Below, piece by piece: positions 30,660 to 60,332 of a stretch of DNA of 64,000 bases. Made by a program: the position numbers and the translations under genes. A model generated the notes under the pieces. The model was not told the origin of the DNA. It saw nothing but the letters and a program-made list of their open reading frames with translations, and ran no database searches. Location: assembly GCF_030013205.1 (NCBI RefSeq), contig NZ_CP122648.1; one strand, 5' to 3'. Position 1 is the stretch's first letter. Every line of letters starts with the position of its first letter. Origin of the DNA: Escherichia coli (GTDB lineage: Bacteria > Pseudomonadota > Gammaproteobacteria > Enterobacterales > Enterobacteriaceae).

Positions 30660-31115
30660 TTAACGTTGTGTCACGCGAATAGCCATTTGCGACTGTCTCT
30701 GCACTACAATTGCCGTTTTTTGAGTACCATACTGTGTAATATTTGCTTTATTACCAGAACCTTTCTGGATAATCATCGCAGTATTACCATAAGCACCTTG
30801 CGAAATACTGGCATCGTTGGCATTGCCCGCCTGATCAATATATGCAAGGTTATAATCTCCTGTCTGGTCAATCTTTGCCCGATTGCTACTACCTTCTTGC
30901 GCAACAACCGCCAAAAGTTTTGAGCCTCCCTGCCGTAACTGAGCACTATTATTAGTCCCAGCTTGACCAATTATGGCTGCCTGATTAAATGAAGACTTAC
31001 TCAATTCATTTACCGCGAAGTTATATTCTGAATTAGCTAAATCATAACCTGCTGCGGCTGCAATCCCAGGCGCACCCAGTATTGTTAACATCATAAATAA
31101 CAATTTGTTTTTCAT
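30660..31115 (-). CDS. csgB: Minor curlin nucleator subunit CsgB
   Basis: 151 aa from MKNKLLFMMLTILGAPGIAAA; curlin repeats. Confidence 0.92.
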   Translation of the reverse strand: MKNKLLFMMLTILGAPGIAAAAGYDLANSEYNFAVNELSKSSFNQAAIIGQAGTNNSAQLRQGGSKLLAVVAQEGSSNRAKIDQTGDYNLAYIDQAGNANDASISQGAYGNTAMIIQKGSGNKANITQYGTQKTAIVVQRQSQMAIRVTQR

Positions 31116-31869
31116 GTTGTCACCCTGGACCTGGTCGTACATTTAAGAAATTAAATCATTTCAACTTGGTTGTTAACGCAACCTGTATTTTGTTAACGCT
31201 GCGTTACGATGGAAAGTATGTCTGCGGAAATATTTTTAATAACTCACCCGCACGTTGTATTTTTCTTTTTTTGTTCATACCAAAGTATTAAAACCCACGT
31301 AAATACGCTGTTATCTACGAAAAAAAATATTTTGTTTTCTTTTAAATCTCCGTTTTCCGCAATCAAAAATCACCAGACAGCCATTTTTCTTGCCCGTCGC
31401 TTATTGCTGCGATATGTCTTGCGCACAAGCCGTGACAAACCTCGTCTTTTTGCAGTAAAAAATTGTCCACGGAGGTGTGGAGAAAAAACAACAACGTTTT
31501 ACATGACGAAAGGACTACACCGAAATATTTTTTATATGCATTATTAGTAAGTTAGCACCATTTGTATGATTTTTTAAAATTGTGCAATAAAAACCAAATG
31601 TACAACTTTTCTATCATTTCTAAACTTAACAAAACCTTAAGATTAACATTTTAATATAACGAGTTACATTTAGTTACATGTTTAACACTTGATTTAAGAT
31701 TTGTAATGGCTAGATTGAAATCAGATGTAATCCATTAGTTTTATATTTTACCCATTTAGGGCTGATTTATTACTACACACAGCAGTGCAACATCTGTCAG
31801 TACTTCTGGTGCTTCTATTTTAGAGGCAGCTGTCAGGTGTGCGATCAATAAAAAAAGCGGGGTTTCATC
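31116..31869. promoter_or_regulatory. csgB-csgD divergent intergenic regulatory region (about 750 bp, AT-rich)
   Basis: Long AT-rich non-coding spacer between divergent curli operons; known from the literature to integrate many regulators. Individual sites not mapped here. Confidence 0.7.
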
Positions 31870-43292: not shown

Positions 43293-44536
43293 GCGAGTTG
43301 AGTTATCTGGAAAAATTGCTGGATGGGGTTGTGGTTGAGTGGAAAACCCTTGAGGATATTTCTATAAAGATATCATCTGGAGGAACCCCTAAAACTGGCG
43401 TATCAGAATTTTATGATGGCGACATTCCTTGGTTGCGAACTCAAGAAGTAAACTTTTGTGATATATGGGATACCGAGGTAAAAATAACTGAGTCTGGAGT
43501 TAAAAACTCTAGTGCAAAATGGATACCAAAGAATTGTGTCATTGTTGCTATGTATGGGGCAACTGTGGGGAAAATCGGCATAAACAAAATTCCAATGACA
43601 ACAAATCAAGCGTGCGCAAATATTCAACTTAATGAAGAAGTTGCTCATTATAGATATGTATTTCACTTCTTGTGTAGCCAATACACATATATCAAATCCC
43701 TTGGAACAGGGTCCCAGACAAACATAAATGCGCAGATTGTCAAAAATATTAAGATCCCCATCCCCTGCCCAGAAAACCCGGAAAAATCCCTTGCCATCCA
43801 GTCTGAAATCGTTCGGATTCTGGACAAATTTACTGCACTTACCGCTGAGCTTACCGCTGAGCTTAACATGCGTAAAAAACAGTACAACTACTATCGCGAC
43901 CAGTTGTTGAGTTTTAAAGAGGGTGAGGTTGAGTGGAAAAGTCTGGAAGATATTGCTTTATTTAGACGGGGTTCATTTCCACAGCCATATGGAAATAGTG
44001 AATGGTATGATGGAGAAGGTTGCATGCCTTTTGTTCAGGTAGCTGATGTGGCTGATTCAGGATTTACATTACACACAAAAACCAAACAACAGATTTCTAA
44101 GATTGCACAAAGCAAGAGCGTTTTTGTTGAGGCTGGAACAATTGTTGTGACACTGCAAGGTACTATTGGTCGAGTAGCAATAACACAGTACGATTGTTAT
44201 GTGGATAGAACTCTTGCAATATTTACTAACTTTAAAGTAAAAATAAACAAAAAATACTTTGCTTATCAACTAAAAGCTAAATTCGATTCAGAGAAAGAAT
44301 TTGCAAGAGGAAGTACTTTGAAGACAATTACAAAAGAAGAGTTTTCTAAGTTCCAATTACCTCTTCCCTCAATAAACGAACAAAATCGTATAGTATCACT
44401 ATTGGATAAGTTCGATACACTGGCTCATTCAATAAAACAAGGTCTCCCGCGTGAAATCGAGTTGCGCCAGAAACAATACGAATACTACCGTGATTTACTG
44501 TTCAGTTTCCCGAAACCTGAAACTGCCAGTAATTAA
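43289..44536 (+). CDS. hsdS: Type I restriction-modification specificity subunit HsdS (two target-recognition domains)
   Basis: 415 aa; ATGA overlap with hsdM; conserved central and C-terminal repeats ([14 protein letters not shown] / [15 protein letters not shown]); TAEL-TAEL spacer. Confidence 0.88.
43841..43864 (+). repeat. Tandem 12-bp repeat ACCGCTGAGCTT x2 encoding TAEL-TAEL in the hsdS central spacer
   Basis: Read directly from sequence; same repeat class whose copy number sets spacer length in EcoR124I/EcoR124II. Confidence 0.85.
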
Positions 44537-44657
44537 TTGATCATTGCTACCGATCGGACCACCTTAACACCCGGTCAGTATATAGACTATTTTTTACGCG
44601 CCGGAAGTCACCATTACCCCCCTTCCGGCCCTTGCCAGACGGCACAAAGGATGCGCT

Positions 44658-47600
44658 ATGACTCATCAGACACACACCATTGCTGAATCCAATAACTTTA
44701 TCGTTCTTGATAAGTACATCAAAGCTGAGCCAACAGGCGACAGCTACCAGAGCGAATCGGACCTGGAACGTGAACTGATTCAGGACCTGCAAAATCAGGG
44801 TTATGAATTTATTTCCGTAAAATCACAGTCGGCAATGCTATCCAATGTTCGGGAACAGCTTCAGAGCCTCAATGGTGTGATGTTTAATGACAGCGAGTGG
44901 CGGCGCTTCACGGAGCAGTATCTGGACAACCCCAGCGATGGTATTCTGGATAAAACCCGTAAAATCCATATCGACTATATCTGCGACTTTATTTTTGACG
45001 ACGGGCGACTTGAGAACATCTATTTGATAGATAAAAAGAATCTCATGCGCAATAAGGTGCAGATTATCCAGCAGTTTGAACAGACGGGTTCTCATGCTAA
45101 CCGTTATGACGTCACGATCCTGGTTAATGGTTTACCGCTGGTGCAAATCGAACTAAAAAAACGCGGGGTGGCGATTCGTGAGGCTTTCAACCAGATACAT
45201 CGTTACAGTAAAGAGAGTTTTAACAGCGAAAATTCCCTGTTTAAGTATCTGCAACTGTTTGTCATTTCTAACGGCACCGATACCCGTTATTTTGCCAACA
45301 CGACAAAGCGCGATAAAAACAGTTTTGACTTCACCATGAATTGGGCGAAATCAGACAACACGCTGATTAAAGACCTCAAAGACTTTACCGCTACCTTTTT
45401 CCAGAAACATACTCTGCTGAATGTTCTGGTGAACTACAGCGTTTTTGACAGTAGTCAGACGCTACTGGTGATGCGACCGTACCAGATTGCCGCCACCGAG
45501 CGCATTCTGTGGAAAATTAAGAGTTCCTTTACAGCGAAGAACTGGTCAAAACCGGAAAGCGGTGGGTATATCTGGCACACTACCGGTTCTGGTAAAACCC
45601 TCACCAGCTTTAAAGCCGCGCGTCTGGCAACAGAGCTGGACTTTATTGATAAAGTCTTCTTTGTGGTCGACAGGAAAGACCTCGATTACCAGACCATGAA
45701 GGAATATCAGCGTTTTTCGCCAGACAGCGTCAACGGCTCGGAAAATACCGCAGGCCTTAAACGAAATCTGGATAAGGACGATAACAAAATTATCGTCACT
45801 ACTATTCAGAAACTCAATAACCTGATGAAAGCAGAAAGCGACCTGCCTGTATATAATCAGCAAGTGGTGTTTATATTTGATGAATGCCACCGCAGCCAGT
45901 TTGGAGAAGCGCAGAAAAACCTGAAGAAGAAATTCAAACGCTATTATCAGTTTGGTTTTACCGGCACCCCTATTTTCCCGGAAAACGCCTTAGGCTCAGA
46001 AACAACCGCCAGCGTATTTGGTCGTGAATTGCATTCGTATGTAATTACCGATGCGATTCGTGACGAAAAAGTGCTCAAATTCAAAGTGGACTACAACGAT
46101 GTGCGGCCACAGTTTAAGTCTTTAGAGACAGAAACTGACGAGAAAAAACTAAGTGCGGCTGAAAATCAGCAGGCGTTTCTTCATCCCATGCGTATTCAGG
46201 AAATCACGCAATATATTCTGAATAATTTCCGCCAGAAAACTCACCGTACCTTCCCTGGCTCAAAAGGTTTTAATGCTATGTTGGCAGTGAGCAGCGTGGA
46301 TGCCGCGAAAGCCTATTATGCGACGTTTAAACGGTTACAAGAAGAAGCCGCTAATAAATCGGCTACCTATAAACCGCTGCGTATTGCGACAATCTTCTCC
46401 TTTGCCGCCAATGAAGAACAAAATGCCATTGGTGAAATTTCCGATGAAACTTTTGATACCAGCGCAATGGACAGCAGTGCTAAAGAGTTTCTGGACGCTG
46501 CAATTCGTGAATATAACAGCCATTTTAAAACTAACTTTAGCACCGACAGTAACGGTTTTCAGAACTACTATCGTGATTTAGCCCAGCGGGTTAAAAATCA
46601 GGATATCGATCTGCTAATTGTCGTGGGGATGTTTTTAACCGGCTTCGATGCTCCAACATTGAACACGCTATTCGTCGATAAAAACTTGCGTTTTCACGGC
46701 CTGATGCAGGCATTTTCCCGCACCAACCGTATTTATGATGCAACTAAAACCTTCGGTAATATCGTCACTTTCCGGGATCTGGAACGCTCAACTATTGATG
46801 CCATAACGCTGTTTGGTGATAAAAACACCAAAAATGTGGTGTTAGAAAAGAGTTATGCTGAGTATATGGAAGGCTTTACTGATGCTGCTACTGGTGAAGC
46901 TAAACGCGGCTTCATGACAGTAGTTTCAGAACTGGAACAACGGTTCCCTGACCCTGCCAGTATTGAAAGTGAAAAAGAGAAGAAAGACTTCGTTAAACTG
47001 TTTGGCGAATACCTGCGTGCCGAGAACATCCTGCAAAACTATGATGAATTTGCCACGCTAAAAGCCCTGCAACAAATCGATCTTAGCGATCCTGTTGCGG
47101 TAGAAAAATTCAAAGCAGAACATTATGTGGATGATGAAAAGTTCGCTGAATTGCAAACAATTCGTCTCCCTGCTGATCGCAAGATTCAGGATTATCGTTC
47201 TGCCTATAACGATATTCGCGACTGGCAGCGCCGTGAGAAAGAAGCTGAGAAAAAAGAGAAATCAACCACTGACTGGGATGACGTAGTTTTTGAGGTCGAT
47301 TTGCTGAAGTCTCAGGAAATAAACCTGGATTATATCCTTGGACTGATTTTCGAACACAACAGACAAAATAAAGGCAAGGGCGAAATGATCGAAGAGGTCA
47401 AACGCTTAATTCGTTCAAGCCTGGGGAACCGTGCTAAAGAGGGCCTGGTGGTCGATTTTATTCAGCAAACGAACCTGGATGATTTACCGGACAAAGCCAG
47501 CATCATTGACGCATTCTTTACGTTTGCTCAACGCGAACAGCAACGTGAAGCAGAAGCCTTGATCAAAGAAGAAAATCTCAATGAAGAGGCGGCGAAACGC

Positions 47601-47774
47601 TATATTCGCACATCTTTAAAACGCGAATACGCCACCGAAAATGGCACGGAATTAAACGAGACACTGCCCAGACTCAGTCCTTTAAATCCGCAATATAAAA
47701 CGAAAAAACAGACTGTTTTTCAAAAAATTAGCGCATTTATTGAAAAATTTAAGGGGGTGGGTGGAAAGATTTAG
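44658..47774 (+). CDS. hsdR: Type I restriction enzyme endonuclease/translocase subunit HsdR
   Basis: 1,038 aa; Walker A TGSGKT and DEAD-box variant FDECHRSQ; good ribosome-binding site; follows hsdMS. Confidence 0.9.
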
Positions 47775-48970
<1,196 letters not shown>

Positions 48971-49163
48971 CTAAGATAATTGGTTTTTAGCGAGTGACGG
49001 GCTAGGTTGTGTCAGTCTGTCTCATGTCGATATTACGGGGATGATGCAAACCTGAATGCTGCGATATTGGCGTGTCAGGGGAGGCATCTTACGGTATCAT
49101 TTACCGCAATTTTTAAGATGCAATGCCCTGCATCGCAGGCTTTTCTTCAGACCAGGATGATTC

Positions 49164-50216
49164 ATGAACGACAAAATCAGTCAGGACACGATCAACAAAG
49201 CCCTGTGGGCCGCGTGTGATACGTTCCGTGGCACCATCAGTGCTGATACCTATAAAGACTTTATCCTTACCATGCTGTTCCTTAAGTACATTTCGGATGT
49301 CTGGCAGGATCATTACGATGAATATAAAAAACAGTATGGTGATGCACCAGAACTCATTGAAGCCATGATGGCGAATGAACGTTTCGTATTGCCGAAAAGC
49401 GCCAGTTTCTATGCGCTGTATGAACGTCGTCATGAACCGGGCAATGGTGAGCGCATCGACCAGGCTCTGCATGCGATTGAAGAAGCTAATGGCACCAAAC
49501 TGAAAGACGCCGGGAAAAGCGTGTTCCAGGATATTTCGTTTAACACCGATCGCCTAGGTGAAGAAAAACAGAAGAACACCATCCTGCGTCAGCTGCTGGA
49601 AGACTTTGCCGGTCAAGATCTTAACCTGAAGCCGAGCCGTGTCGGTACGCTGGACGTTATCGGTAATGCCTACGAATATCTGATCAAAAACTTTGCTGCC
49701 AGCGGTGGGCAGAAAGCCGGGGAATTCTATACCCCACCAGAAGTTTCGGACCTGATTGCAGAACTGCTCGATCCGCAACCGGGTGATACCATCTGCGATC
49801 CAGCCTGTGGTTCCGGTTCATTATTGATGAAGTGTGGGCGTAAAATTGTCTCCGGGCATGATAGTCGTAACTATGCATTGTTCGGTCAGGAAGCGATCGG
49901 TTCTGCGTGGTCGCTGGCGAAAATGAATATGTTCCTGCACGGGGAAGACAACCATAAAATCGAGTGGGGCGATACCATTCGTAACCCGAAGCTGCTCGAT
50001 AAAAATGGCGACCTGATGCTGTTTGATATCGTGACCGCTAACCCACCGTTCAGCCTCGATAAGTGGGGCCATGACGAGGCCGAGAACGATAAGTTTGGCC
50101 GTTTTCGTCGCGGTGTACCGCCGAAGACTAAAGGAGGTATGGGATGCCTGCGCCAATATGGAGCGCTATATCCAGTACGGCTTTACCCCGCAAGAGCGCC
50201 ACCGTCTGTTTGGTGA
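49164..50216 (+). pseudogene. hsdM: Second type I restriction-modification methyltransferase hsdM, 3'-truncated (homology ends near 50,130; 3' tail of ORF is out-of-context)
   Basis: HsdM N-domain, DPACGSGSLL and NPPFS motifs present, but ORF ends ...[13 protein letters not shown] then unrelated tail; no hsdS follows. Confidence 0.7.
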
Positions 50217-51471
50217 GAGCGACTGGGGTCAGTTTGTGCCCCGTGATTTTGCCCATCTGCTTGATCTGCTAGGATCCCCAAACACGGCCGACGCTGCCGA
50301 TAAAAGCCGTGCAGCTGCCGGTAGCCAAGGGCGCACCTTGTTGGCCATTTTGCAGGATGACAAGCTTGATGGTGAGCAGACGGTGGAGGAGGAGAGCGCA
50401 GGCTCCGAGCGCTTTAACAGCGTCATCAACTTCTCCAACTTCTTGCTCCATGTGCTGCGACTCGTGAGCCGCGACCCGGGTGATACGGAGGGGGTGCCGC
50501 TTGATGATAAACAACTGGTCGATCAGTTTGAGCTGCGAGTGATAAGGCAACCGGATCCAGTAGCGGCAGTTCAGCGTTTTATCTATGGCCTGTTAAAGAG
50601 CAAGTATCTGTTTGATCAGTTCATCATCAAGCGCGAGTTTGCCGATGGCAAGGATAGTTGGAGTTTGAAGCGGCTGCACAGGTATTCGGAAAAGAGCGTC
50701 AGTTACATCAATACCTTTGACAAGGATGAAAATGAGAATGGTTTCTCTGGTGTTAACCGGCGGGTCCTGATGTTGCTGTCGGCGTTTCATGTGTCGACCC
50801 CGACCCTGGTTTACAAACATTGGCTGAATGGTGCACTGAGATATCTGTTCGACAATTGTCACCCTGATCAACCGGTGGATGCCGGGGCTTATCTGTCCTA
50901 TCTGGAGAGTCAGGCTCGCCGCTTTGTCTTCCAGCGCTTTTTGGCGCCTGGTGAAGGGGCTTCCTATTACCAGATGCTCTACCTTGATAACGCCCTGTTG
51001 CCCGCCATCAATGTGGATGAGAGTTGGCACAAGGTGATTACATCCAAACTTCGCTTCGGTCATATCGAGAACAACTTTGTCTTCAACTTCCTCGACTATC
51101 TGCTGTGGGTACGAGATCGGAATAGCGACAAAGTTGCTGGCTCCTTTGAGTTCACTTTCCGCAGCTCGGTGGAGCACTTCTCACCCCAGCATCCGATGGA
51201 TGGCTATAAACCGGTTGAGCAGAGTGCACTCCATTCGTTTGGCAACCTTTGCCTTATCAGCCACAGCAAGAACTCGCGCTTGAGTAACTTCCAGCCGCAA
51301 CAGAAGCAGGAGCACTTTGAAGCAAGCCTTGCCAATAACCAGACTGATAGTCTTAAATTGCTTGCTATGATTCGGCTGATGAAAGATAAAGGTCGTTGGC
51401 TGGAAGATGAGATAGCTGTGCATCAACAAGATATGTTGCAGGTCTTACTATCCAATCAAATTCAGCAATAA
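50158..51471 (+). pseudogene. GmrSD-like type IV restriction enzyme, C-terminal DUF1524 (His-Me finger) portion; 5' DUF262 part missing
   Basis: C-terminal ...[15 protein letters not shown]...[16 protein letters not shown] resembles the DUF1524 motif; no DGQQR DUF262 motif; upstream in-frame sequence is hsdM DNA read in another frame. Could alternatively be expressed from ATG 50158. Confidence 0.5.
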
Positions 51472-51657: not shown

Positions 51658-54600
51658 ATGTCGACTGTAGATACCTCTATAGCAGAGGAACTCAATCAAG
51701 GAGGCTCAGATTTTATTCTGACTTCCCTCGAGGCTATGCGTAAGAAGTTATTGGACCTTACGTCTCGAAATCGACTTTTGAATTTCCCTATCACTCAAAA
51801 AGGGTCTTCACTACGTATTGTTGATGAATTACCAGAACAGCTTTATGAAACCCTTTGCTCGGAAATCCCGATGGAATTTGCTCCTGTGCCCGATCCAACT
51901 AGAGCGCAGCTGTTAGAGCATGGCTATCTCAAAGTTGGGCCAGATGGTAAAGATATACAGTTAAGAGCTCATCCTAGCGCTAAGGATTGGGCGCACGTCT
52001 TAGGAATCCGTACAGATTTTGATTTACCAGATAGCCATAAAACGGTTGTTTCTGATTCAGATAGAGAGTTGCTGGAAAAAGCCCATCAGTTTATCTTGCA
52101 ATATGCCCAAGGCCAGAATGGAAAATTAACAGGGATTCGTTCTGAATACGTTAATCAAGGTATAGCTTTGTCAGCGTTGAAGGAGGCGTGCTGCTTAGCA
52201 GGCTATGAAGGGCTTGAGGATTTTGAACGACAGGCAAAGGCTGGGAATGAGATTAGTATATCTTCTTCCAATCCCTCTCATGACGATAATCGGATACAGG
52301 CTCTGCTTTATCCAAATGAACTGGAAGCTTGTTTGCGCGCCATCTATGGTAAGGCTCAAACTGCTTTGGAGGAGAGTGGCGCCAACATCTTGTATTTGGC
52401 GTTAGGGTTCCTTGAGTGGTATGAAAGCGATTCCTCTGAAAAGGCACGTTATGCACCGTTATTTACAATTCCGGTGAGATGTGAACGAGGAAAATTAGAT
52501 CCGAAGGATGGTCTTTACAAGTTTCAACTTTATTACACGGGTGAAGATATTTTGCCCAATCTCTCTTTGAAGGAAAAACTTCAGGCTGACTTTGGCCTCG
52601 CTCTTCCTTTGTTCAATGAAGAGGAAACTCCAGAGTCTTATTTTGCTTCGGTGAAGAAGGTTGTAGAGCAGCACAAACCTAAATGGTCTGTGAAACGTTA
52701 TGGTGCACTTAGCTTGCTCAATTTTGGCAAGATGATGATGTATCTTGACCTCGATCCTGCCCGCTGGCCTTGTGACAAGCGCAATATATTGTCTCATGAA
52801 GTAATTCGTCGCTTTTTCACCAGTCAGAGCTGTGGTCAAGAGAATTCCGGCTTACCTGGTGGCTTCGGTCAGCATGAGTACTGCATCGATAGTTACCCTG
52901 ATATTCATGACAAGGTTCCACTAATCGATGATGCGGATAGCTCGCAGCACAGTGCGTTGATCGATGCTATCCGTGGTCAAAACTTAGTCATTGAGGGCCC
53001 TCCTGGTAGTGGCAAATCACAAACGATCACCAACTTGATTGCAGCAGCTCTGCTCAACGGTAAGAAAGTCCTGTTTGTGGCAGAGAAGATGGCTGCACTG
53101 GAGGTCGTCAAACGTCGCTTGGATCGTGCGGGGCTAGGTCAATTTTGCTTAGAGTTGCACAGTCATAAAACTCATAAGCGCAAGGTGCTGGATGATATTA
53201 ATGCTCGCTTGGTGAGTCAGGCGACCATGCCTACTATGGAAGAGATTGATGCTCAGATTTTGCGTTATGAAGATCTTAAGCAGCAGCTCAATGAATATGC
53301 CGCATTGATCAATAACCAATGGGCGCAAACAGGCAAAACGATCCATCAGATTTTGAGTGGTGCAACCCGTTATCGTCACAAATTAGATATTGATGCAACA
53401 GCACTTCATATCGAAAACCTTTCCGGGAAGCAGTTGGATAAAGTGACCCAATTACGGCTGCGTGACCAAATAGTAGAGTTTAGCCGCATCTACAAAGAGG
53501 TTCGTGAGCAGGTGGGGGCTAATGCAGAAATATATGAGCACCCTTGGAGCGGTGTGAATAACACACAAATTCAATTGTTTGACAGCGCTCGTATAGTCGA
53601 TTTGCTACAAACTTGGCAGACATCAATTATCGACTTTCAACATAGCTATCAAGAATATGTAGATAAGTGGGCGTTAGAAGGCGAAAGCCTTAATACGCTT
53701 CAATATATTGAGCAATTGGTAGAAGATCAGTCGAATCTTCCAGTGTTGTGTGGTTCAGAGCATTTCCCAGCACTTAGTGAGCTAGATTCACCCGATGCCA
53801 TTGCACGGGTGCGTCACTATTTAGATAGGTTCGAGTTGCTACAAGGTCATTATGTGGCCTTGAGCCAGGTTATCGAGCCTCAAAAGCTACGACTTTTAGA
53901 ACAAGGACAATCGTGTGACTTTCCTCGTGAAGAGCTGGAAAAATATGGTGCAGCAGAGGATTTCACTTTACGTGATTTGGTCAGGTGGCTTGAATCCATC
54001 CAATCAATTCATGATGAGTTATCATCTATTTATGCGCAATTAAACGATTTCAAAAATGCTTTGCCAGATGGTATTGCTTCGTATATCGATGATTCGCAAG
54101 CTGGATTGCTATTCTGCTCTGAGTTGTTGTCGATTCTGGGTGCTTTACCGACTGAGCTTATTAGAGTTCGAGATCCTCTTTTTGATGATGATGATATCGA
54201 TGCAGTATTGCGCGACTTAATGTGTCAAATCGAAACATTGCGTCCTTTAAGAGATGGTCTATCTACTTTGTATCAATTGGACCAGTTGCCTTCCCAAGAG
54301 ATGCTCGCGCATGCCGTTGCTGTTATCCAGCAAGGGGGATTATTTGCATGGTTTAAGAGTGATTGGCGTAGTGCCAAGGCACTGCTCATGGCGCAATCTC
54401 GTAAGCCCGACACTAAGTTTGCTGAGTTAAAACGCTGCTCAGCTGATTTGCTCAAGTATTCGGAGCTGTTACAACGGTTTGAACAAAGTGACTTTGGTAA
54501 TCAACTTGGTAATGCATTCCGAGGGTTGGACACCGACTGTGAACAACTCATGTTATTGCGTGATTGGTACAAGAAGGTCCGAGCTTGTTACGGGATAGGT

Positions 54601-57393
54601 TTTGGAAAGCGAGTTGCGATAGGCTCTGGATTATTTAACCTAGATGGTGAGATTATCAAAGGTGTGCATTTAATCGAGAAATCGCAGATTAGCTCAAGAT
54701 TAATGACTTTGGTTAAACGGGTCGAGCACGAGGCTAAGTTATTACCGCGTATTTCTAGCTTGTTGGAAGAACATGCATCTTGGTTAGGTGAGCAAGGTGT
54801 ATTGATGCAATCTTACCGACAGGTGCGGAATACTCTCATTGCCTTGCAGGGATGGTTTATCAATCCAGATATATCATTAGAGCAGATGACTCATTCCTCC
54901 GAGATTTTGCAAAACATAAACGATCTTCAGATATCCCTTGAAAATGACTCGTTACAGTTAGGGGCGTTTTTACAATTAACCCCATTGGCTTGCGGTGCGT
55001 ATAAAAATAATCAACTGACGTTAGACACTATTAACGACACGCTGAATTTTGCCGAGCAACTGGTTGATAAGATAAATTGCGTATCCTTGGCTACCCAGAT
55101 CAGACATTTGGCTAGTGGTAGTGATTACGATTTACTATGTCGTGATGGTGGGGAAATAGTTTCGAAATGGAATGAACAGATTAAAAATGCTGAGTTATAT
55201 GCGCTAGAAACAAAGTTAGAGCGGAGTCAGTGGCTCAAGTCGACTGATGGTTCTCTTAATACATTAATCGAGCGCAACGAAAGAGCAATACAGCAACCCC
55301 GTTGGTTGAACGGGTGGGTTAACTTTATTCGTTGTTACGAGCAGATGGATGAAAACGGATTGCAGCGAATCTGGAGTGCTGTACTTGCGGGCTCGCTCCC
55401 GATTGAAAAAGTTGAATTGGGTTTAGCATTAGCAATTCATGACCAGCTGGCGCGGGAGGTTATTCACATCCACCCTGAATTGATGAGAGTTTCCGGCTCA
55501 CAGCGCAATGCTTTGCAGAAGTCATTTAAAGATTACGACAAAAAACTGATTGAATTACAACGTCAGCGGATTGCAGCAAAAATTGCTTGCCGAAATATAC
55601 CAGAAGGGAATTCTGGTGGTAAGAAAAGCGAATATACAGAACTAGCTTTGATCAAAAATGAGTTGGGTAAAAAAACCAGACATATTCCAATTAGACAATT
55701 GGTTAACCGTGCATGTAATGCGCTGGTTGCAATTAAACCTTGTTTCATGATGGGGCCAATGTCAGCAGCTCATTACCTAGAACCTGGACGAATGGAATTT
55801 GATCTGGTGGTGATGGACGAAGCGTCTCAGGTGAAGCCAGAGGATGCATTGGGTGTCATCGCGAGGGGCAAGCAACTAGTGGTCGTTGGTGACCCGAAAC
55901 AGCTACCACCAACCAGTTTCTTTGATCGAAGTGCCGACGGAGAAGATGACGATGATGCCGCGGCTTTAAGTGATACTGACAGCATTTTGGATGCTGCTTT
56001 GCCACTGTTTCCTATGAGACGTTTGCGTTGGCACTATCGTTCACGACATGAAAAGTTGATTGCATACTCTAACCGCCATTTTTATAACAGTGATTTGGTG
56101 ATATTCCCTTCCCCAAATGCTGAGTCTCCAGAGTATGGGATTAAATTTACCTATGTGTCAAAAGGTCGGTTCTCCAATCAACACAATATTGAAGAAGCCC
56201 AAGCAGTTGCTGAGGCCGTACTTCATCATGCGCAACACCGGCCGGGTGAGTCACTCGGGGTAGTGGCCATGAGTTCCAAGCAACGCGATCAAATTGAGCG
56301 CGCTATCGATGAATTGCGCCGAAATCGCCCTGAATTTAACGATGCAATCGATGGCTTATATGCCATGGAAGAGCCACTTTTTGTGAAAAACCTTGAGAAC
56401 GTTCAAGGGGATGAGCGTGATGTAATCTTTATTTCCTTTACCTATGGACCTTCTGAGCATGGTGGAAAGGTTTATCAACGCTTTGGACCTATCAATTCCG
56501 ATGTTGGCTGGCGTCGCTTGAATGTGCTTTTCACTCGATCAAAAAAACGGATGCATGTGTTTAGTTCAATGCGTTCTGAAGATGTATTGACGAGTGAAAC
56601 CAGTAAACTTGGTGTTATTTCGTTGAAAGGTTTTTTACAGTTTGCCGAAAGTGGCAAACTAGATTCCCTCACAACGCATACCGGCAGGGCTCCAGATAGT
56701 GACTTTGAGGTTGCTGTAATGGAAGCACTCAATCACGCTGGGTTTGAGTGTGAACCTCAGGTAGGGGTTGCAGGATTCTTTATTGATCTAGCTGTGAAAG
56801 ATCCAGGTTGTCCTGGCCGTTACTTAATGGGCATAGAGTGTGATGGTGCGGCTTATCACTCAGCTAAATCTGCTCGTGATCGTGACCGTTTGCGTCAAGA
56901 GGTTCTGGAGCGTTTGGGTTGGAGAATTAGCCGCATTTGGTCCACTGATTGGTTCAGTAATCCTGATGAGGTTCTATCTCCGATTATCCGTAAACTCCAT
57001 GAGCTTAAAACATTGGCTCCAGACGTTGTTGTACCTTCCTATGAATATGTAGAAACGATTGAGTCAAGCGCTGAAGTGGCGTCTGACTCAATTGATTCTC
57101 TTATGCCCAATTTGGGGCTTAAGGAGCAACTTAAGTATTTTGCCACACATGTCATTGAGGTTGAGCTTCCTAATGTTGATGCTGATCGTCGTTTGTTGCG
57201 GCCCGCAATGCTTGAGGCTTTGCTGGAACATCAGCCTTTATCACGTTCCGAGTTTGTTGAACGAATACCTCATTATCTGCGGCAAGCAACAGATGTATAC
57301 GAAGCGCAACGCTTTCTTGACCGAGTCTTGGCATTAATTGATGGCGCAGAGGCTGAAGCGAATGATGCAGCGTTTGAGTCTGAATTGGCATAA
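51658..57393 (+). CDS. Giant DUF4011-type SF1 (Upf1-like) helicase with C-terminal Vsr/DUF559-like endonuclease domain (Hhe-like architecture); candidate defence protein
   Basis: DUF4011-like signatures (LLDLTSRNRLLNF, ILYLALGFLEW), Walker A GPPGSGKS (52996-53019), motif II VVMDEASQ (55807-55830), motifs V/VI QGDERDVIFIS...RRLNVLFTRSKKRM, then GFFIDLAVKD...IECDGAAYHS...RDRDRLRQEVLERLGWRISRIW Vsr-like fold; ATG 51658 has GGAG 6 nt upstream (alternative ATG 51646). Confidence 0.85.
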   Translation: MSTVDTSIAEELNQGGSDFILTSLEAMRKKLLDLTSRNRLLNFPITQKGSSLRIVDELPEQLYETLCSEIPMEFAPVPDPTRAQLLEHGYLKVGPDGKDIQLRAHPSAKDWAHVLGIRTDFDLPDSHKTVVSDSDRELLEKAHQFILQYAQGQNGKLTGIRSEYVNQGIALSALKEACCLAGYEGLEDFERQAKAGNEISISSSNPSHDDNRIQALLYPNELEACLRAIYGKAQTALEESGANILYLALGFLEWYESDSSEKARYAPLFTIPVRCERGKLDPKDGLYKFQLYYTGEDILPNLSLKEKLQADFGLALPLFNEEETPESYFASVKKVVEQHKPKWSVKRYGALSLLNFGKMMMYLDLDPARWPCDKRNILSHEVIRRFFTSQSCGQENSGLPGGFGQHEYCIDSYPDIHDKVPLIDDADSSQHSALIDAIRGQNLVIEGPPGSGKSQTITNLIAAALLNGKKVLFVAEKMAALEVVKRRLDRAGLGQFCLELHSHKTHKRKVLDDINARLVSQATMPTMEEIDAQILRYEDLKQQLNEYAALINNQWAQTGKTIHQILSGATRYRHKLDIDATALHIENLSGKQLDKVTQLRLRDQIVEFSRIYKEVREQVGANAEIYEHPWSGVNNTQIQLFDSARIVDLLQTWQTSIIDFQHSYQEYVDKWALEGESLNTLQYIEQLVEDQSNLPVLCGSEHFPALSELDSPDAIARVRHYLDRFELLQGHYVALSQVIEPQKLRLLEQGQSCDFPREELEKYGAAEDFTLRDLVRWLESIQSIHDELSSIYAQLNDFKNALPDGIASYIDDSQAGLLFCSELLSILGALPTELIRVRDPLFDDDDIDAVLRDLMCQIETLRPLRDGLSTLYQLDQLPSQEMLAHAVAVIQQGGLFAWFKSDWRSAKALLMAQSRKPDTKFAELKRCSADLLKYSELLQRFEQSDFGNQLGNAFRGLDTDCEQLMLLRDWYKKVRACYGIGFGKRVAIGSGLFNLDGEIIKGVHLIEKSQISSRLMTLVKRVEHEAKLLPRISSLLEEHASWLGEQGVLMQSYRQVRNTLIALQGWFINPDISLEQMTHSSEILQNINDLQISLENDSLQLGAFLQLTPLACGAYKNNQLTLDTINDTLNFAEQLVDKINCVSLATQIRHLASGSDYDLLCRDGGEIVSKWNEQIKNAELYALETKLERSQWLKSTDGSLNTLIERNERAIQQPRWLNGWVNFIRCYEQMDENGLQRIWSAVLAGSLPIEKVELGLALAIHDQLAREVIHIHPELMRVSGSQRNALQKSFKDYDKKLIELQRQRIAAKIACRNIPEGNSGGKKSEYTELALIKNELGKKTRHIPIRQLVNRACNALVAIKPCFMMGPMSAAHYLEPGRMEFDLVVMDEASQVKPEDALGVIARGKQLVVVGDPKQLPPTSFFDRSADGEDDDDAAALSDTDSILDAALPLFPMRRLRWHYRSRHEKLIAYSNRHFYNSDLVIFPSPNAESPEYGIKFTYVSKGRFSNQHNIEEAQAVAEAVLHHAQHRPGESLGVVAMSSKQRDQIERAIDELRRNRPEFNDAIDGLYAMEEPLFVKNLENVQGDERDVIFISFTYGPSEHGGKVYQRFGPINSDVGWRRLNVLFTRSKKRMHVFSSMRSEDVLTSETSKLGVISLKGFLQFAESGKLDSLTTHTGRAPDSDFEVAVMEALNHAGFECEPQVGVAGFFIDLAVKDPGCPGRYLMGIECDGAAYHSAKSARDRDRLRQEVLERLGWRISRIWSTDWFSNPDEVLSPIIRKLHELKTLAPDVVVPSYEYVETIESSAEVASDSIDSLMPNLGLKEQLKYFATHVIEVELPNVDADRRLLRPAMLEALLEHQPLSRSEFVERIPHYLRQATDVYEAQRFLDRVLALIDGAEAEANDAAFESELA

Positions 57394-57415
57394 TTAGTTA
57401 AAGGTAATAAGAACA

Positions 57416-57586
57416 GTGACAACTGTCGGACAACGTGAACGCGCAACTCAACAGCGCGTAATCAGGTTTTTTATTGAGGAATTGGGCTATCGTTATCTAG
57501 GCGATTGGCACAAGCGTCCTAACAACCGTAATGTTGAGCCTGATTTGCTCAGTCATTGGTTGATTGACCGTGGTGTTGTGGACTGA
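57416..57586 (+). pseudogene. Small ORF with HsdR-N-like motif, 22 nt downstream of the giant gene; terminated at the IS3-family element boundary
   Basis: GTG start; VTTVGQRERATQQRVIRFFIEELGYRYLGDWHK... ; stop TGA coincides with first bases of the IS; possible continuation at 62297-62484. Confidence 0.35.
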
Positions 57587-57613
57587 CCCCACGCCCGTAG
57601 ACAAATTCTGTCC

Positions 57614-58061
57614 TCACGACGAGGCCTGTTCGAAGGCCTCCGGACTGACGCCGCCGAGGTGACTGTGGCGCCGGGCCCGGTTGTAGAACACTTCAATGTA
57701 ATCGAAGATATCCGCCCGGGCTAGATCCCGGGTTTTGTATATTCTCTTCCTGATGCGCTCTTTTTTCAGTGAACTGAAGAACGATTCGGCCACCGCATTA
57801 TCCCAGCAGTTGCCACGCCGGCTCATGCTCGGGACCAGGTTATTAGCCCGGCAGAAGTGCTGCCAGTCGTCACTGCCGTACTGGCTTCCCTGGTCTGAGT
57901 GCACGATGACCTCGCCGTCGGGTTTACGTCGCCAGACCGCCATCATCAGTGCATCCAGCGCCAGTTCGCGTGAGAGAGTGGGCTTCATCGACCAGCCCAC
58001 CACGTTACGGGCGAAGAGATCGATAACCACCGCCAGATACAGCCAGCCCTGCCAGGTGCGG
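57614..58061 (-). pseudogene. IS3-family transposase OrfB, C-terminal exon (downstream of intron)
   Basis: ...[26 protein letters not shown]...DDE integrase core...NRARRHSHLGGVSPEAFE. Confidence 0.7.
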
Positions 58062-60332
58062 AGTAGAGTAAGAGGCAGGGCGTAGTCGGACTATTTCCCT
58101 GCCTCTCCTCCCCGAACCGGACGTGCACCTTTCAGCGCATCCGGCTCTCCATTTAAATGCTGGCGAACGCCATTGCCACTTCTGTAAAGCGCGATGTATA
58201 CGTGTTTCTGGTCTCCGTCCTCAGATAGGGATTACCTTCGGGTAGCCGCCAGCGGAACAGCTTCTTGCCTTGCCCCACCAACCGGTACAGTATTTCGCCG
58301 CTGAGCTTGCCGTGATTGGTTTTACCAAATAAAACCCACGTTTTGCTCTGACCCGGTTTCGGTGATTTACACCACCACCTCATCAGGGAAGCGATACCTG
58401 TACGGTATTTGTGGGCCAGCCAGTGAGCCAGCTTCCAGAACACGACACGGTCGATATAACTGAAGACTTTGGCCTTAAAATCAACGAACTGATAGAACAT
58501 GGCCCAGCCTTTCAGTTTTCGGTTGAGTTGTTCAGCCATATCGACTTTGCTTTCACTGTAGTTGCCTGATAACAGTGCTGTCAGCGATGCGGCGAAGTTT
58601 CTGGCTTTCTCCTGCGGGATCGTTGAGACCACTCGCATCTCGCCATAACGACTGCGTTTGCGAATGATCCTGTGCCCCAGAAAGATAAAGCCGTCATTAA
58701 CATGGGTGATTTTAGTCTTATCCATGTTCAGCCTGAGTTTCAGACTGCCTTTGAGCACACCCCGACACTCCTCCCTGATGGCTTCCGCCTGTGCTTTGGT
58801 GCCTTTGACGATGAGGACAAAATCATCGGCATAGCGGCAGTACGCCACCGCGGGTTTCCACTGCCAGTTTTCTCTGACCGCCGTACTTCGGCCCCGTTGG
58901 ATACTGTTATTCCAGTACCACCGATCTTTTCTGGCTTTCCCGCTCAGGTAGCGCTCATGCAGGTATTGATCGAACTCATTCAGCATGATGTTCGATAATA
59001 GCGGCGATATAACACCGCCCTGTGGCACACCTTCACTGGCCGCCCGAAAGAGACCGACATCGATATGTCCCGCCTTGATGGTTTTCCACAGCAGAGTCAT
59101 GAAACGTGCGTCACTGATCCTGCGGCGTACAGCCTTCATCAGCAGTCGATGATGTACGGTGTCGAAGTAACTGGACAGGTCGCCTTCAATCACCCAGCGT
59201 CCCCGGGTTTCACCACAGTCTGTGAGCTGTAATTTCACCGTGCGGATCGCGTGGTGGACACTGCGCTCAGGCCGGAAGCCATATGAGAGCGTATGAAAAT
59301 CACTCTCCCATATCGGCTCCATCGCCATCAGCATGGCCCGCTGAACAATACGATCCCGCAACGCGGGGATACCCAGTGGTCGCAGTTTGCCGTTGCTTTT
59401 AGGGATGTAAACCCGTCTGGCGGGCAAGGGCTGGTAGTGGCCTGAGAGTAATTCATCCCTGAGGATTTGCAGCTCAACAGCCAGTCTGGCCTGTAGCATT
59501 GTTTTGTTCACGCCATCAACGCCGGGGGTATGGGCCCCCTTTGATGAAAGCGTGATCCGCGCCGCTTCAGCCAGCCATTCTGGTTGTGTTATCAGACGCA
59601 GCAGCCGTTGAATCCGTAGGGACGGATCGGTGGCTGCCCATGTGGCAAGCTTGCGTTGCATTTCGCTGATTATCAAAGGTCTTCACCTCGTTAGGTCAGT
59701 TAATTCACGTCGTAAACACATTCAAACTGCTTCCCTTCGCCATGTAATGGGCTTTCCCCATCGCGGACTACTACGGAAGCTCCGCCAGCCAGCGCGTCAT
59801 CGGAGCCATGCCCCCTTAACATCCGTCGCTGACCTTCCCCGGTTTACCTGCCTGGACTCAGGCATACTGAGGAGGCTGCCCGTCGCACTCTTTATCCTTG
59901 CTTGCCGCAAGTTGGCAGAAGTCAGCAACGCAAGCGTGATAGACGCTGCTGCCCCGGTGTTTCGCATACATGTCAAAACACCTTCGACCGGCAGTGCTTA
60001 CGTATCACTGCCAGTTCCTCCTGCACGGCCTGTCAGATCACGTAGGCCGTGGTGACGTTTTCAACCCACAGAGGCGGATTAACGGGTTCATGTTCTTCAG
60101 CCTTTCAGTACTTAACCTTGAGGATCATCTCGGCTTAGTGATCTCGCCTCAATCCCCGTTGTCAGCGGGTTACATCACCTTGCGGGCATGCCGCAGGTCA
60201 CTGCCGCTCAGGTTCTCCACCGTCACACCCGGTGGGATTGTTGGGTTTCTCATCGTGAGTTACCGGTTCAATATTCCAGACAGATTCGCGGTTCATTTAA
60301 GCATCCATGCCCGCCCTGAACTCCGGGCACAC
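58062..60332 (-). mobile_element. Bacterial group II intron (about 2.27 kb) inserted in IS3-family orfB
   Basis: 5' end GUGUG at the exon junction (minus strand), 3' end ...CUAC; domain V-like hairpin GAGCCGGATGCGCTGAAAGGTGCACGTCCGGTTC near 58100-58135; reverse-transcriptase ORF in domain IV. Confidence 0.75.
58153..59676 (-). CDS. Group II intron-encoded reverse transcriptase/maturase
   Basis: 507 aa; reverse-transcriptase motifs including YADD (YCRYADDFVLIV); maturase X-like C-terminus. Confidence 0.85.
   Translation of the reverse strand: MIISEMQRKLATWAATDPSLRIQRLLRLITQPEWLAEAARITLSSKGAHTPGVDGVNKTMLQARLAVELQILRDELLSGHYQPLPARRVYIPKSNGKLRPLGIPALRDRIVQRAMLMAMEPIWESDFHTLSYGFRPERSVHHAIRTVKLQLTDCGETRGRWVIEGDLSSYFDTVHHRLLMKAVRRRISDARFMTLLWKTIKAGHIDVGLFRAASEGVPQGGVISPLLSNIMLNEFDQYLHERYLSGKARKDRWYWNNSIQRGRSTAVRENWQWKPAVAYCRYADDFVLIVKGTKAQAEAIREECRGVLKGSLKLRLNMDKTKITHVNDGFIFLGHRIIRKRSRYGEMRVVSTIPQEKARNFAASLTALLSGNYSESKVDMAEQLNRKLKGWAMFYQFVDFKAKVFSYIDRVVFWKLAHWLAHKYRTGIASLMRWWCKSPKPGQSKTWVLFGKTNHGKLSGEILYRLVGQGKKLFRWRLPEGNPYLRTETRNTYTSRFTEVAMAFASI

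Follow-up and report, generated by a model that had tools for sequence, protein, structure and literature searches.

Target-recognition domain exchange and AT-rich codon choice in an EcoR124-family hsdS gene of Escherichia coli

We analysed the hsdS gene carried by a 64,000-nucleotide stretch of an Escherichia coli genome (NZ_CP122648.1; hereafter the window). Very probably, this is an EcoR124-family hsdS whose target-recognition domain (TRD) cassettes have been swapped by recombination, and the AT-richness of those cassettes is a synonymous signature of the whole family rather than the trace of a recent import. The exchange of TRDs was seen directly in the comparison of genomes and does not depend on base composition.

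The gene is part of an intact type IC (EcoR124-family) type I restriction-modification operon with the order hsdM-hsdS-hsdR, located at positions 41736–47774 of the + strand (Table 1). All three reading frames are full length and intact. An identical copy (100%) of the operon is found on the chromosome of E. coli K_EC180 (NZ_CP062203.1), where the hsdS product is annotated as WP_063084988.1; outside the operon, K_EC180 and the window differ by small indels. The operon lies inside an E. coli genomic island that begins at tRNA-Ser(GGA) (37415–37502). This island adjoins the curli (csg) genes and additionally carries prophage-like remnants, an IS5-family element, a second, truncated hsdM and the anti-phage gene hhe. 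To set the limits of the hsdS segments, we aligned the HsdS proteins of 13 E. coli type IC alleles.

Table 1. Features of the type IC operon, in window coordinates. GC3 is the GC content at third codon positions.
Feature	Coordinates	Strand	Composition	Remarks
hsdM	41736..43292	+	GC 0.456, GC3 0.505	Methyltransferase subunit; 4-nt overlap with hsdS; Pfam N6_Mtase and HsdM_N
hsdS	43289..44536	+		Specificity subunit, 415 aa, two TRDs; Pfam Methylase_S in two stretches
N-terminal conserved segment	43289..43339	+	GC 0.451, GC3 0.588	Conserved in 13/13 alleles
TRD1 cassette	43340..43756	+	GC 0.367, GC3 0.324	AT-rich; common on E. coli F-type plasmids
Central conserved segment (dimerisation helix)	43757..43915	+	GC 0.465, GC3 0.547	Protein identical to EcoR124 HsdS
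TAEL repeat	43838..43865	+		12-bp tandem repeat CTTACCGCTGAG x2.3, encodes (TAEL)2; Tandem Repeats Finder
TRD2 cassette	43916..44392	+	GC 0.354, GC3 0.233	Most AT-rich part; rare in E. coli
C-terminal conserved segment	44393..44536	+	GC 0.418, GC3 0.404 (over 44393-44533)
Promoter-like site (candidate)	44564..44593	+		9/12 consensus match in the 121-bp hsdS-hsdR spacer; weak, no regional enrichment
hsdR	44658..47774	+		Motor-nuclease subunit, 1038 aa; Pfam EcoR124_C, T1R_D3-like, SWI2_SNF2 and HSDR_N

In silico, the family is delimited by HsdM and HsdR proteins that are more than 90% identical to those of its members (PMC5399793). The HsdM studied here shares 514 of 518 residues (99.2%) with the EcoR124 M protein (PDB 7bst), well inside that limit. 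Its HsdR scored 2282.5 bits against EcoR124 HsdR (PDB 2w00) over residues 1–1038, which is 98.7% of the self-score of 2312.3. In HsdS, residues 1–25, 153–223 and 341–415 align almost identically to EcoR124 HsdS (PDB 7bst), but the TRDs do not. This layout, with conserved N-terminal, central and C-terminal segments and two variable TRDs, is common to the 13 E. coli HsdS alleles. The TAEL repeat by which the family is recognised is present in the central segment as LTAELTAEL. Classically, membership was defined by subunit complementation, antibody cross-reaction and DNA hybridisation. At the DNA level, the operon is 94–97% identical to hundreds of E. coli type IC operons, and judging from its sequence it would almost certainly hybridise with members of the type IC family. 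The match of HsdM, HsdR and the HsdS framework to EcoR124, together with the three intact genes, therefore identifies a type IC system.

The first-pass annotation had proposed, on compositional grounds, that the TRDs were shuffled by horizontal exchange. Comparison with other genomes bore this out, as the two TRDs assort independently, each with several partners, and remain 99–100% identical across operons that have diverged by 3–5%. Of 5426 complete E. coli genomes, 1666 have matches to the operon (chromosomes and plasmids), usually in two to three pieces that skip one or both TRDs, and the full hsdS was found in 15 of the 5426; this allele is carried by K_EC180 and by swine ETEC strains, for example. 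At ≥99% identity, TRD1 is present in 357 of these genomes (340 of its 393 places are plasmid-borne) and TRD2 in 35, and only 15 genomes carry both. TRD2 is combined with at least four different TRD1s, one of them the EcoR124I-type TRD1 of strain 165, and TRD1 with at least two different TRD2s. One allele (L002) has a 99.8% identical TRD1 next to a different TRD2, and three others (L003–L005) share a TRD2 that is 99–100% identical and joined to three different TRD1s.

The shared cassettes are 99–100% identical, and the hsdM genes of the same operons are 94.9–96.6% identical; overall, these cassettes occur in hsdM/hsdR backgrounds that differ by 3–5%. On pKBN10P04869A, for example, TRD1 is 99.8% and hsdM 95.9% identical to the window. 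TRDs that are not shared align at 51–59%, which is the background level. Strain 165 (NZ_CP020509.1), whose hsdS has three TAEL repeats, and the window have in common a 657-nt tract free of mismatches (43869–44525), which starts beside the TAEL repeat and is flanked by sequence that is approximately 3% different. In general, the homology breakpoints are located in the conserved segments. Nor is the mosaic confined to hsdS: plasmid pHN257-3 matches the window at 99.7–100% identity over the hsdS-hsdR spacer and the first 1.4 kb of hsdR, and at 96.1% in hsdM.

In type IC systems, it has long been established that TRDs are exchanged within conserved segments and that spacers change through the TAEL repeat (PMC3874165), and the mechanism behind mosaic hsdS genes was described more than 30 years ago (Gubler et al. 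1992, summarised in PMC3874165). Exchange of TRDs and TRDs richer in AT are long-known general traits of this enzyme family, so we regard this as an ordinary system that behaves as expected.

In HsdS, the interchangeable DNA-reading cassettes TRD1 and TRD2 alternate with the three conserved segments, whose helices hold the subunit together and contact HsdM. Since the conserved segments are near-identical between alleles, homologous recombination probably swaps whole TRDs between chromosomal and plasmid copies. The spacer may in turn be altered when the 12-bp TAEL repeat slips or undergoes unequal crossing-over; the copy number of TAEL in the other alleles ranges from 1 to 4. The HsdS proteins of pCTXM15_005784 and pKBN10P04869A differ in nothing but this number (2 versus 3). 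In EcoR124I and EcoR124II, two TAEL repeats correspond to an N6 spacer and three to N7 (PMC3874165). The window allele can be read as a combination in which two TAEL repeats join a TRD1 frequently found on F-type plasmids of E. coli to a rare TRD2. If it follows EcoR124I, its two repeats should give a bipartite target whose half-sites are separated by a 6-bp spacer. As in type IC enzymes described so far (PMC3874165), each TRD would read one half-site, HsdS would form a methyltransferase with two HsdM subunits, and two further HsdR subunits would turn it into a nuclease. Such an enzyme would be expected to place m6A in its bipartite target and to restrict DNA in an ATP-dependent manner.

Among known systems, EcoR124I and EcoR124II of plasmid R124 have the same gene order, hsdM-hsdS-hsdR, and EcoR124I also has two TAEL repeats. 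However, both window TRDs are unrelated or weakly related to those of EcoR124I, the single match to an EcoR124 TRD being that of window TRD1 to EcoR124 TRD2 (34 bits). The target is therefore not GAA N6 RTCG. We also looked for the recognition sequence in the ST131 methylome paper, where the type I systems described are different ones. EcoR124 further differs in its location on plasmid R124, while the window operon is chromosomal, in the island at tRNA-Ser. EcoDXXI, EcoprrI and the EcoR124/EcoDXXI recombinants (Gubler et al. 1992 via PMC3874165) exchange whole TRDs in the conserved segments, as observed here. In type IC hybrids, the length of the spacer depends on how many TAEL repeats there are, and the E. 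coli genomes that we compared behave likewise; the TRD alleles of the natural and engineered hybrids are nevertheless not those of the window.

Two more distant specificity subunits resemble parts of the window protein. The HsdS of the lactococcal plasmid pIL6 (NC_019308.1) is likewise a two-TRD protein whose second TRD is a relative of window TRD2, at about 60% protein identity, and its hsdS is the most AT-rich gene of its operon. It differs in having another conserved framework without a TAEL segment, the gene order hsdR-hsdM-hsdS and a low-GC Firmicute host. The S subunit of Methanocaldococcus jannaschii (PDB 1yf2) is the best match among solved structures outside EcoR124 (E = 7e-44, residues 17–386), and its first TRD clearly resembles window TRD1. 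This protein, however, is archaeal, has other conserved helices and shows no family relationship in HsdM/HsdR.

The calculation of GC content confirmed that the TRDs are AT-rich relative to the framework, as had been noted by eye: TRD1 and TRD2 have 36.7% and 35.4% GC, compared with 44.4% in the conserved hsdS segments and 44.3% in hsdM and hsdR. The description "strongly A/T-biased" holds for synonymous sites, where the contrast is large, but the plain drop in GC is moderate (8–9 points). Pooled TRDs have a GC3 of 0.275. The likeness of the conserved hsdS segments to hsdM/hsdR, claimed by the same annotation, was also recovered. The pooled segments (GC 0.444, GC3 0.496) were indistinguishable from hsdM+hsdR (GC 0.443, GC3 0.488; p = 1.0). 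Fisher tests separated the TRDs from hsdM+hsdR (p = 4e-6 at all sites, p = 7e-12 at third codon positions) and from the hsdS framework (p = 6.5e-3 and p = 3e-5, respectively). The neighbouring E. coli core genes have a GC of 0.521 and a GC3 of 0.568 (the latter computed on the K_EC180 sequence), and the operon as a whole has 44% GC. Composition is therefore three-tiered, falling from the core genes to the type IC framework and further to the TRDs.

Of the two AT-rich regions delimited by the first-pass annotation, 43920–44400 was essentially right, but 43350–43800 overruns the end of TRD1 by approximately 45–65 nt and enters the central conserved segment. Unsupervised segmentation of GC3 along hsdS placed breaks at 43664, 43937 and 44443. 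DNA homology with other alleles breaks at about 43342–43353, 43735–43757, 43942–43956 and 44369–44403, and the GC3 breaks fall near these points. The C-terminal segment has an intermediate GC3 (0.36–0.40) because its first part co-segregates with TRD2. It is 97.9–99.3% identical to alleles bearing this TRD2 and 82–87% identical to the others, and its AHSIKQ variant is limited to the TRD2-bearing alleles.

The dip in GC is not peculiar to the window. All 12 of the other E. coli type IC alleles, which cover at least 10 different TRD1s and 9 different TRD2s, have TRDs with a GC3 of 0.21–0.45 and a central segment with 0.45–0.60. A K. pneumoniae plasmid allele has a GC3 of 0.26 and 0.38 in the TRDs against 0.49–0.62. 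Even the allele of a GC-rich Aeromonas IncU plasmid follows the same pattern, with a GC3 of 0.59–0.60 in the TRDs, 0.70–0.72 in the framework and 0.78–0.79 in hsdM/hsdR. We then scanned one genome per species (100,044 species) and found 22 loci with relatives of TRD2 (53–87% protein identity). They belong to Bacteroidota, several proteobacterial classes, candidate-phyla-radiation bacteria, Melainabacteria, Cyanobacteria and one archaeon. The composition of neighbouring genes, which were mechanically defined as long ORFs, could be computed for 21 of these 22 loci, and the addition of the window brought the number compared back to 22. In this sample of one TRD family, 21 loci besides the window, the GC3 of the TRD was below that of the neighbouring genes in 20 of the 22 loci, including all 14 in which the neighbours exceeded 0.4. 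The mean difference was -0.14 (Wilcoxon p = 9e-5), with a regression slope of 0.41. Thus, the AT shift is generic to the TRD cassettes examined, which track the composition of their hosts only partly.

The further claim, that AT-richness marks the specificity as foreign to this hsdM/hsdR, is not supported by these results, as the dip was present in all alleles examined and no donor was found. Since every type IC allele examined has the same dip, it cannot separate a native TRD from an imported one. Moreover, HsdM and HsdR of this family work with any HsdS of the family, so a "native" specificity has little meaning here. Compositional dips in hsdS are thus generic to TRDs and give no evidence of a recent foreign import.

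Near-identical sequences outside E. coli were absent from 72,556 plasmids (searched by tblastn), from a 5.8-billion-protein search and from the 100,044 species-representative genomes, and neither these searches nor the 5426 E. coli genomes allowed us to name a donor lineage. The closest relatives of TRD2 outside E. coli have 81–87% protein and 75–81% DNA identity; they come from Chryseobacterium, Oleibacter, Ningiella, Acinetobacter, Pseudocitrobacter and Klebsiella plasmids, all with TAEL-type frameworks. Plasmids of Lactococcus and Pediococcus encode a relative of TRD2 that is about 60% identical and set in a different framework. For TRD1, E. coli itself has a variant at 86% identity, and Aeromonas a relative at 54% that occupies the second TRD position. 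One Campylobacterales genome has relatives of both TRDs (70% and 76%) in a single HsdS with their order swapped, a pair far too distant to be the donor. The matches listed in the protein searches were mostly proteins of 140–280 aa.

Four other explanations of the AT-rich TRDs were weighed, two of which may be set aside. The idea that the dip is a chance fluctuation in a generally AT-rich operon draws on the low GC of the entire operon (44%) compared with the neighbouring core genes (52% GC, GC3 0.57). Its probability is negligible, as it is refuted by the Fisher tests, by the recurrence of the dip in every allele examined and by sliding windows of 417 and 477 nt across hsdM and hsdR, none of which was as AT-rich as the TRDs (minimum GC 0.413–0.415). 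Hardly more credible is the idea that the TRDs are AT-rich because DNA-binding domains contain many Lys, Asn and Ile residues. GC at first codon positions is indeed somewhat lower in the TRDs (0.433 vs 0.515), but at second positions it is higher (0.372 vs 0.326). When the amino acids of the TRDs were recoded with the codon usage of hsdM/hsdR, the expected GC was 0.432 for TRD1 and 0.447 for TRD2, far above the observed 0.35–0.37 (z = -4.7 and z = -7.1), and 0 of 3000 simulations gave values as low. Amino-acid composition is thereby refuted as the main cause. The conserved hsdS segments were as expected from recoding (z = -0.6). Recoding and codon-position GC together show that the AT-richness is a matter of synonymous codon choice and not of protein composition; the contrast between the TRDs and the framework is almost entirely at synonymous sites.

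The reading of the first-pass annotation amounts to a recent import of the AT-rich TRDs from an AT-rich donor, with a foreign specificity and the mosaic as the scar of the import. It can appeal to the GC3 of the TRDs (0.32 and 0.23), far under the 0.49 of the framework, and to the relatives in AT-rich Campylobacterales, candidate-phyla-radiation bacteria and Lactococcus plasmids, among them the Campylobacterales HsdS that combines both TRDs. Additionally, window TRD2 has a lower GC3 (0.233) than the most similar domains found in type IC frameworks from other Proteobacteria (0.33–0.43); this low value is the only hint that TRD2 may have come fairly recently from an AT-rich source. We nevertheless find recent import improbable. 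The dip recurs in 12 of 12 other E. coli alleles and in the Klebsiella and Aeromonas copies and is not specific to this allele, the nearest relatives outside E. coli are only 81–87% identical in protein and 75–81% in DNA (70–76% for the Campylobacterales pair), and the cassettes are already widespread in E. coli plasmids and chromosomes. Somewhat unlikely, though better placed than import, is a local origin, in which TRDs that have diverged beyond pairing would escape the GC-biased gene conversion that holds the recombining framework at a higher GC and, perhaps with relaxed codon selection, drift to an AT-biased mutational equilibrium. The synonymous nature of the shift, its scaling with host composition (slope 0.41), the TRD deficit kept by the GC-rich Aeromonas copy and the rough coincidence of compositional and homology breakpoints all speak for it. 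On the other hand, 99–100% identical cassettes across diverged frameworks mean that TRDs move as units. A local origin and a circulating pool of cassettes are not mutually exclusive. As to the cause of the shift, the cassettes most likely evolve as a separate circulating pool that would not be homogenised with the hsdM/hsdR of any host. Such a pool, escape from GC-biased gene conversion and relaxed codon selection are all compatible with the AT shift.

It is tempting to extend these observations to type I TRD cassettes at large, which may generally and across phyla be more AT-rich than their own hsdM/hsdR framework, through synonymous changes alone. We offer this as a tentative conjecture, with somewhat less than an even chance of being correct. 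If true, TRDs would form a gene pool above the level of the host, with a quicker turnover than that of the enzymes carrying them; alternatively, it would mean that cassettes that cannot be aligned escape GC-biased gene conversion. In either case, TRD boundaries could be marked from sequence alone by means of the shift, which could also give a handle on recombination-driven composition. The hsd genes are known to deviate in GC from the genomes of their hosts (PMC12255300). In the literature that we could search, we found no explicit earlier remark on TRDs being AT-richer than their hsdS framework. The recurrence of the synonymous shift in so many phyla may merit a systematic survey.

The locus itself is a textbook EcoR124-family system, and its importance lies mainly in careful annotation. 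Partners in public genomes that share one TRD or differ by no more than one TAEL repeat should make the assignment of specificity easy.

Promoter-like sites were not in excess in the AT-rich TRD region, where we observed 7 and expected 6.3. The promoter-like site in the hsdS-hsdR spacer (Table 1) is, judging from its letters, a possible candidate for the separate hsdR promoter expected in this family.

In the course of the comparison with plasmid-borne operons, we observed that the hsdS-hsdR spacer together with the first 1.4 kb of hsdR (window 44537-46060) is 99.7-100% identical to the corresponding part of plasmid pHN257-3, and that the hsdM genes of the same two operons are 96.1% identical. 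The recombinational patchwork spans the whole operon, beyond hsdS alone.

The target-recognition domains (TRDs) were also found in other positions and orders. In the HsdS of an Aeromonas veronii IncU plasmid (NZ_CP121836.1), a 54% relative of the window TRD1 occupies the second TRD position, showing that these domains do not depend on their place in the subunit. Additionally, relatives of both window TRDs are present in a single HsdS of a Campylobacterales metagenome-assembled genome (JALVWY010000076.1; 29% GC), with their order swapped: the TRD2-like domain comes first (aa 13-167, 70% identity) and the TRD1-like domain second (aa 212-350, 76%). This protein may recognize the bipartite target of the window enzyme, read on the opposite strand.

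Outside E. coli, the nearest relative of TRD2, at 87% identity, was detected in Chryseobacterium sp. 18061 (CACSKA010000002.1). It lies in an operon of the TAEL type, where 48.5% GC and a GC3 of 0.59 were computed for the neighbouring genes. The genus is usually much less GC-rich than these neighbours, which would suggest that the operon is a foreign element or that the contig was mis-binned. Among the protein-database matches listed, most relatives of TRD1 or TRD2 are 140-280 aa long and may be either genuine half-size S subunits or gene fragments from short contigs.

Variation was also seen in the TAEL repeat, the four-residue unit of the central conserved segment. The HsdS proteins of two E. 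coli plasmids (NZ_CP028576.1 and NZ_CP026474.1), an allele that has TRD1 in common with the window, differ solely in carrying two versus three copies. The pair represents a naturally occurring equivalent of the spacer switch between EcoR124I and EcoR124II. Four copies are present in the type IC HsdS of the A. veronii plasmid. In more distant frameworks (L027-L036, loci from our genome scan for TRD2 relatives), other four-residue repeats, namely LEAE, ELNK and ELSA, stand at the TAEL position of the central helix. This suggests that spacer tuning by repeats may reach past the classical type IC systems.

Upstream of hsdM, at 37415-41500, tRNA-Ser(GGA) is followed by prophage-like remnants, among them fragments of DUF4942 and DUF5983. 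Downstream of hsdR, the stretch at 47922-51471 resembles a second defence system that has decayed, and the region at 51658-59661 looks like a defence island.

Features flanking the hsd operon in the window
Feature	Position	Remark
tRNA-Ser(GGA)	37415-37502	start of island
cbtA/cbeA toxin-antitoxin pair	within 37415-41500	among prophage-like remnants
Antirestriction gene	about 38883-39386	among prophage-like remnants
Ag43-like autotransporter, truncated	within 37415-41500	among prophage-like remnants
YeeP-like GTPase	within 37415-41500	among prophage-like remnants
IS5-family element, ISKpn26-like transposase	47922-48902	directly 3' of hsdR
Second type I hsdM, unrelated, C-terminally truncated	49164-50135	after IS5-family element
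HNH endonuclease pseudogene	50128-51471	after IS5-family element
hhe, anti-phage gene (DUF4011)	51658-57393	
IS3 fragment	within 51658-59661	
ltrA, group II intron reverse transcriptase	58153-59661	

The most AT-rich stretch of the window is the csgB-csgD intergenic region at about 31100-31700, where GC falls to its minimum of 0.31; the hsdS TRDs are less AT-rich.
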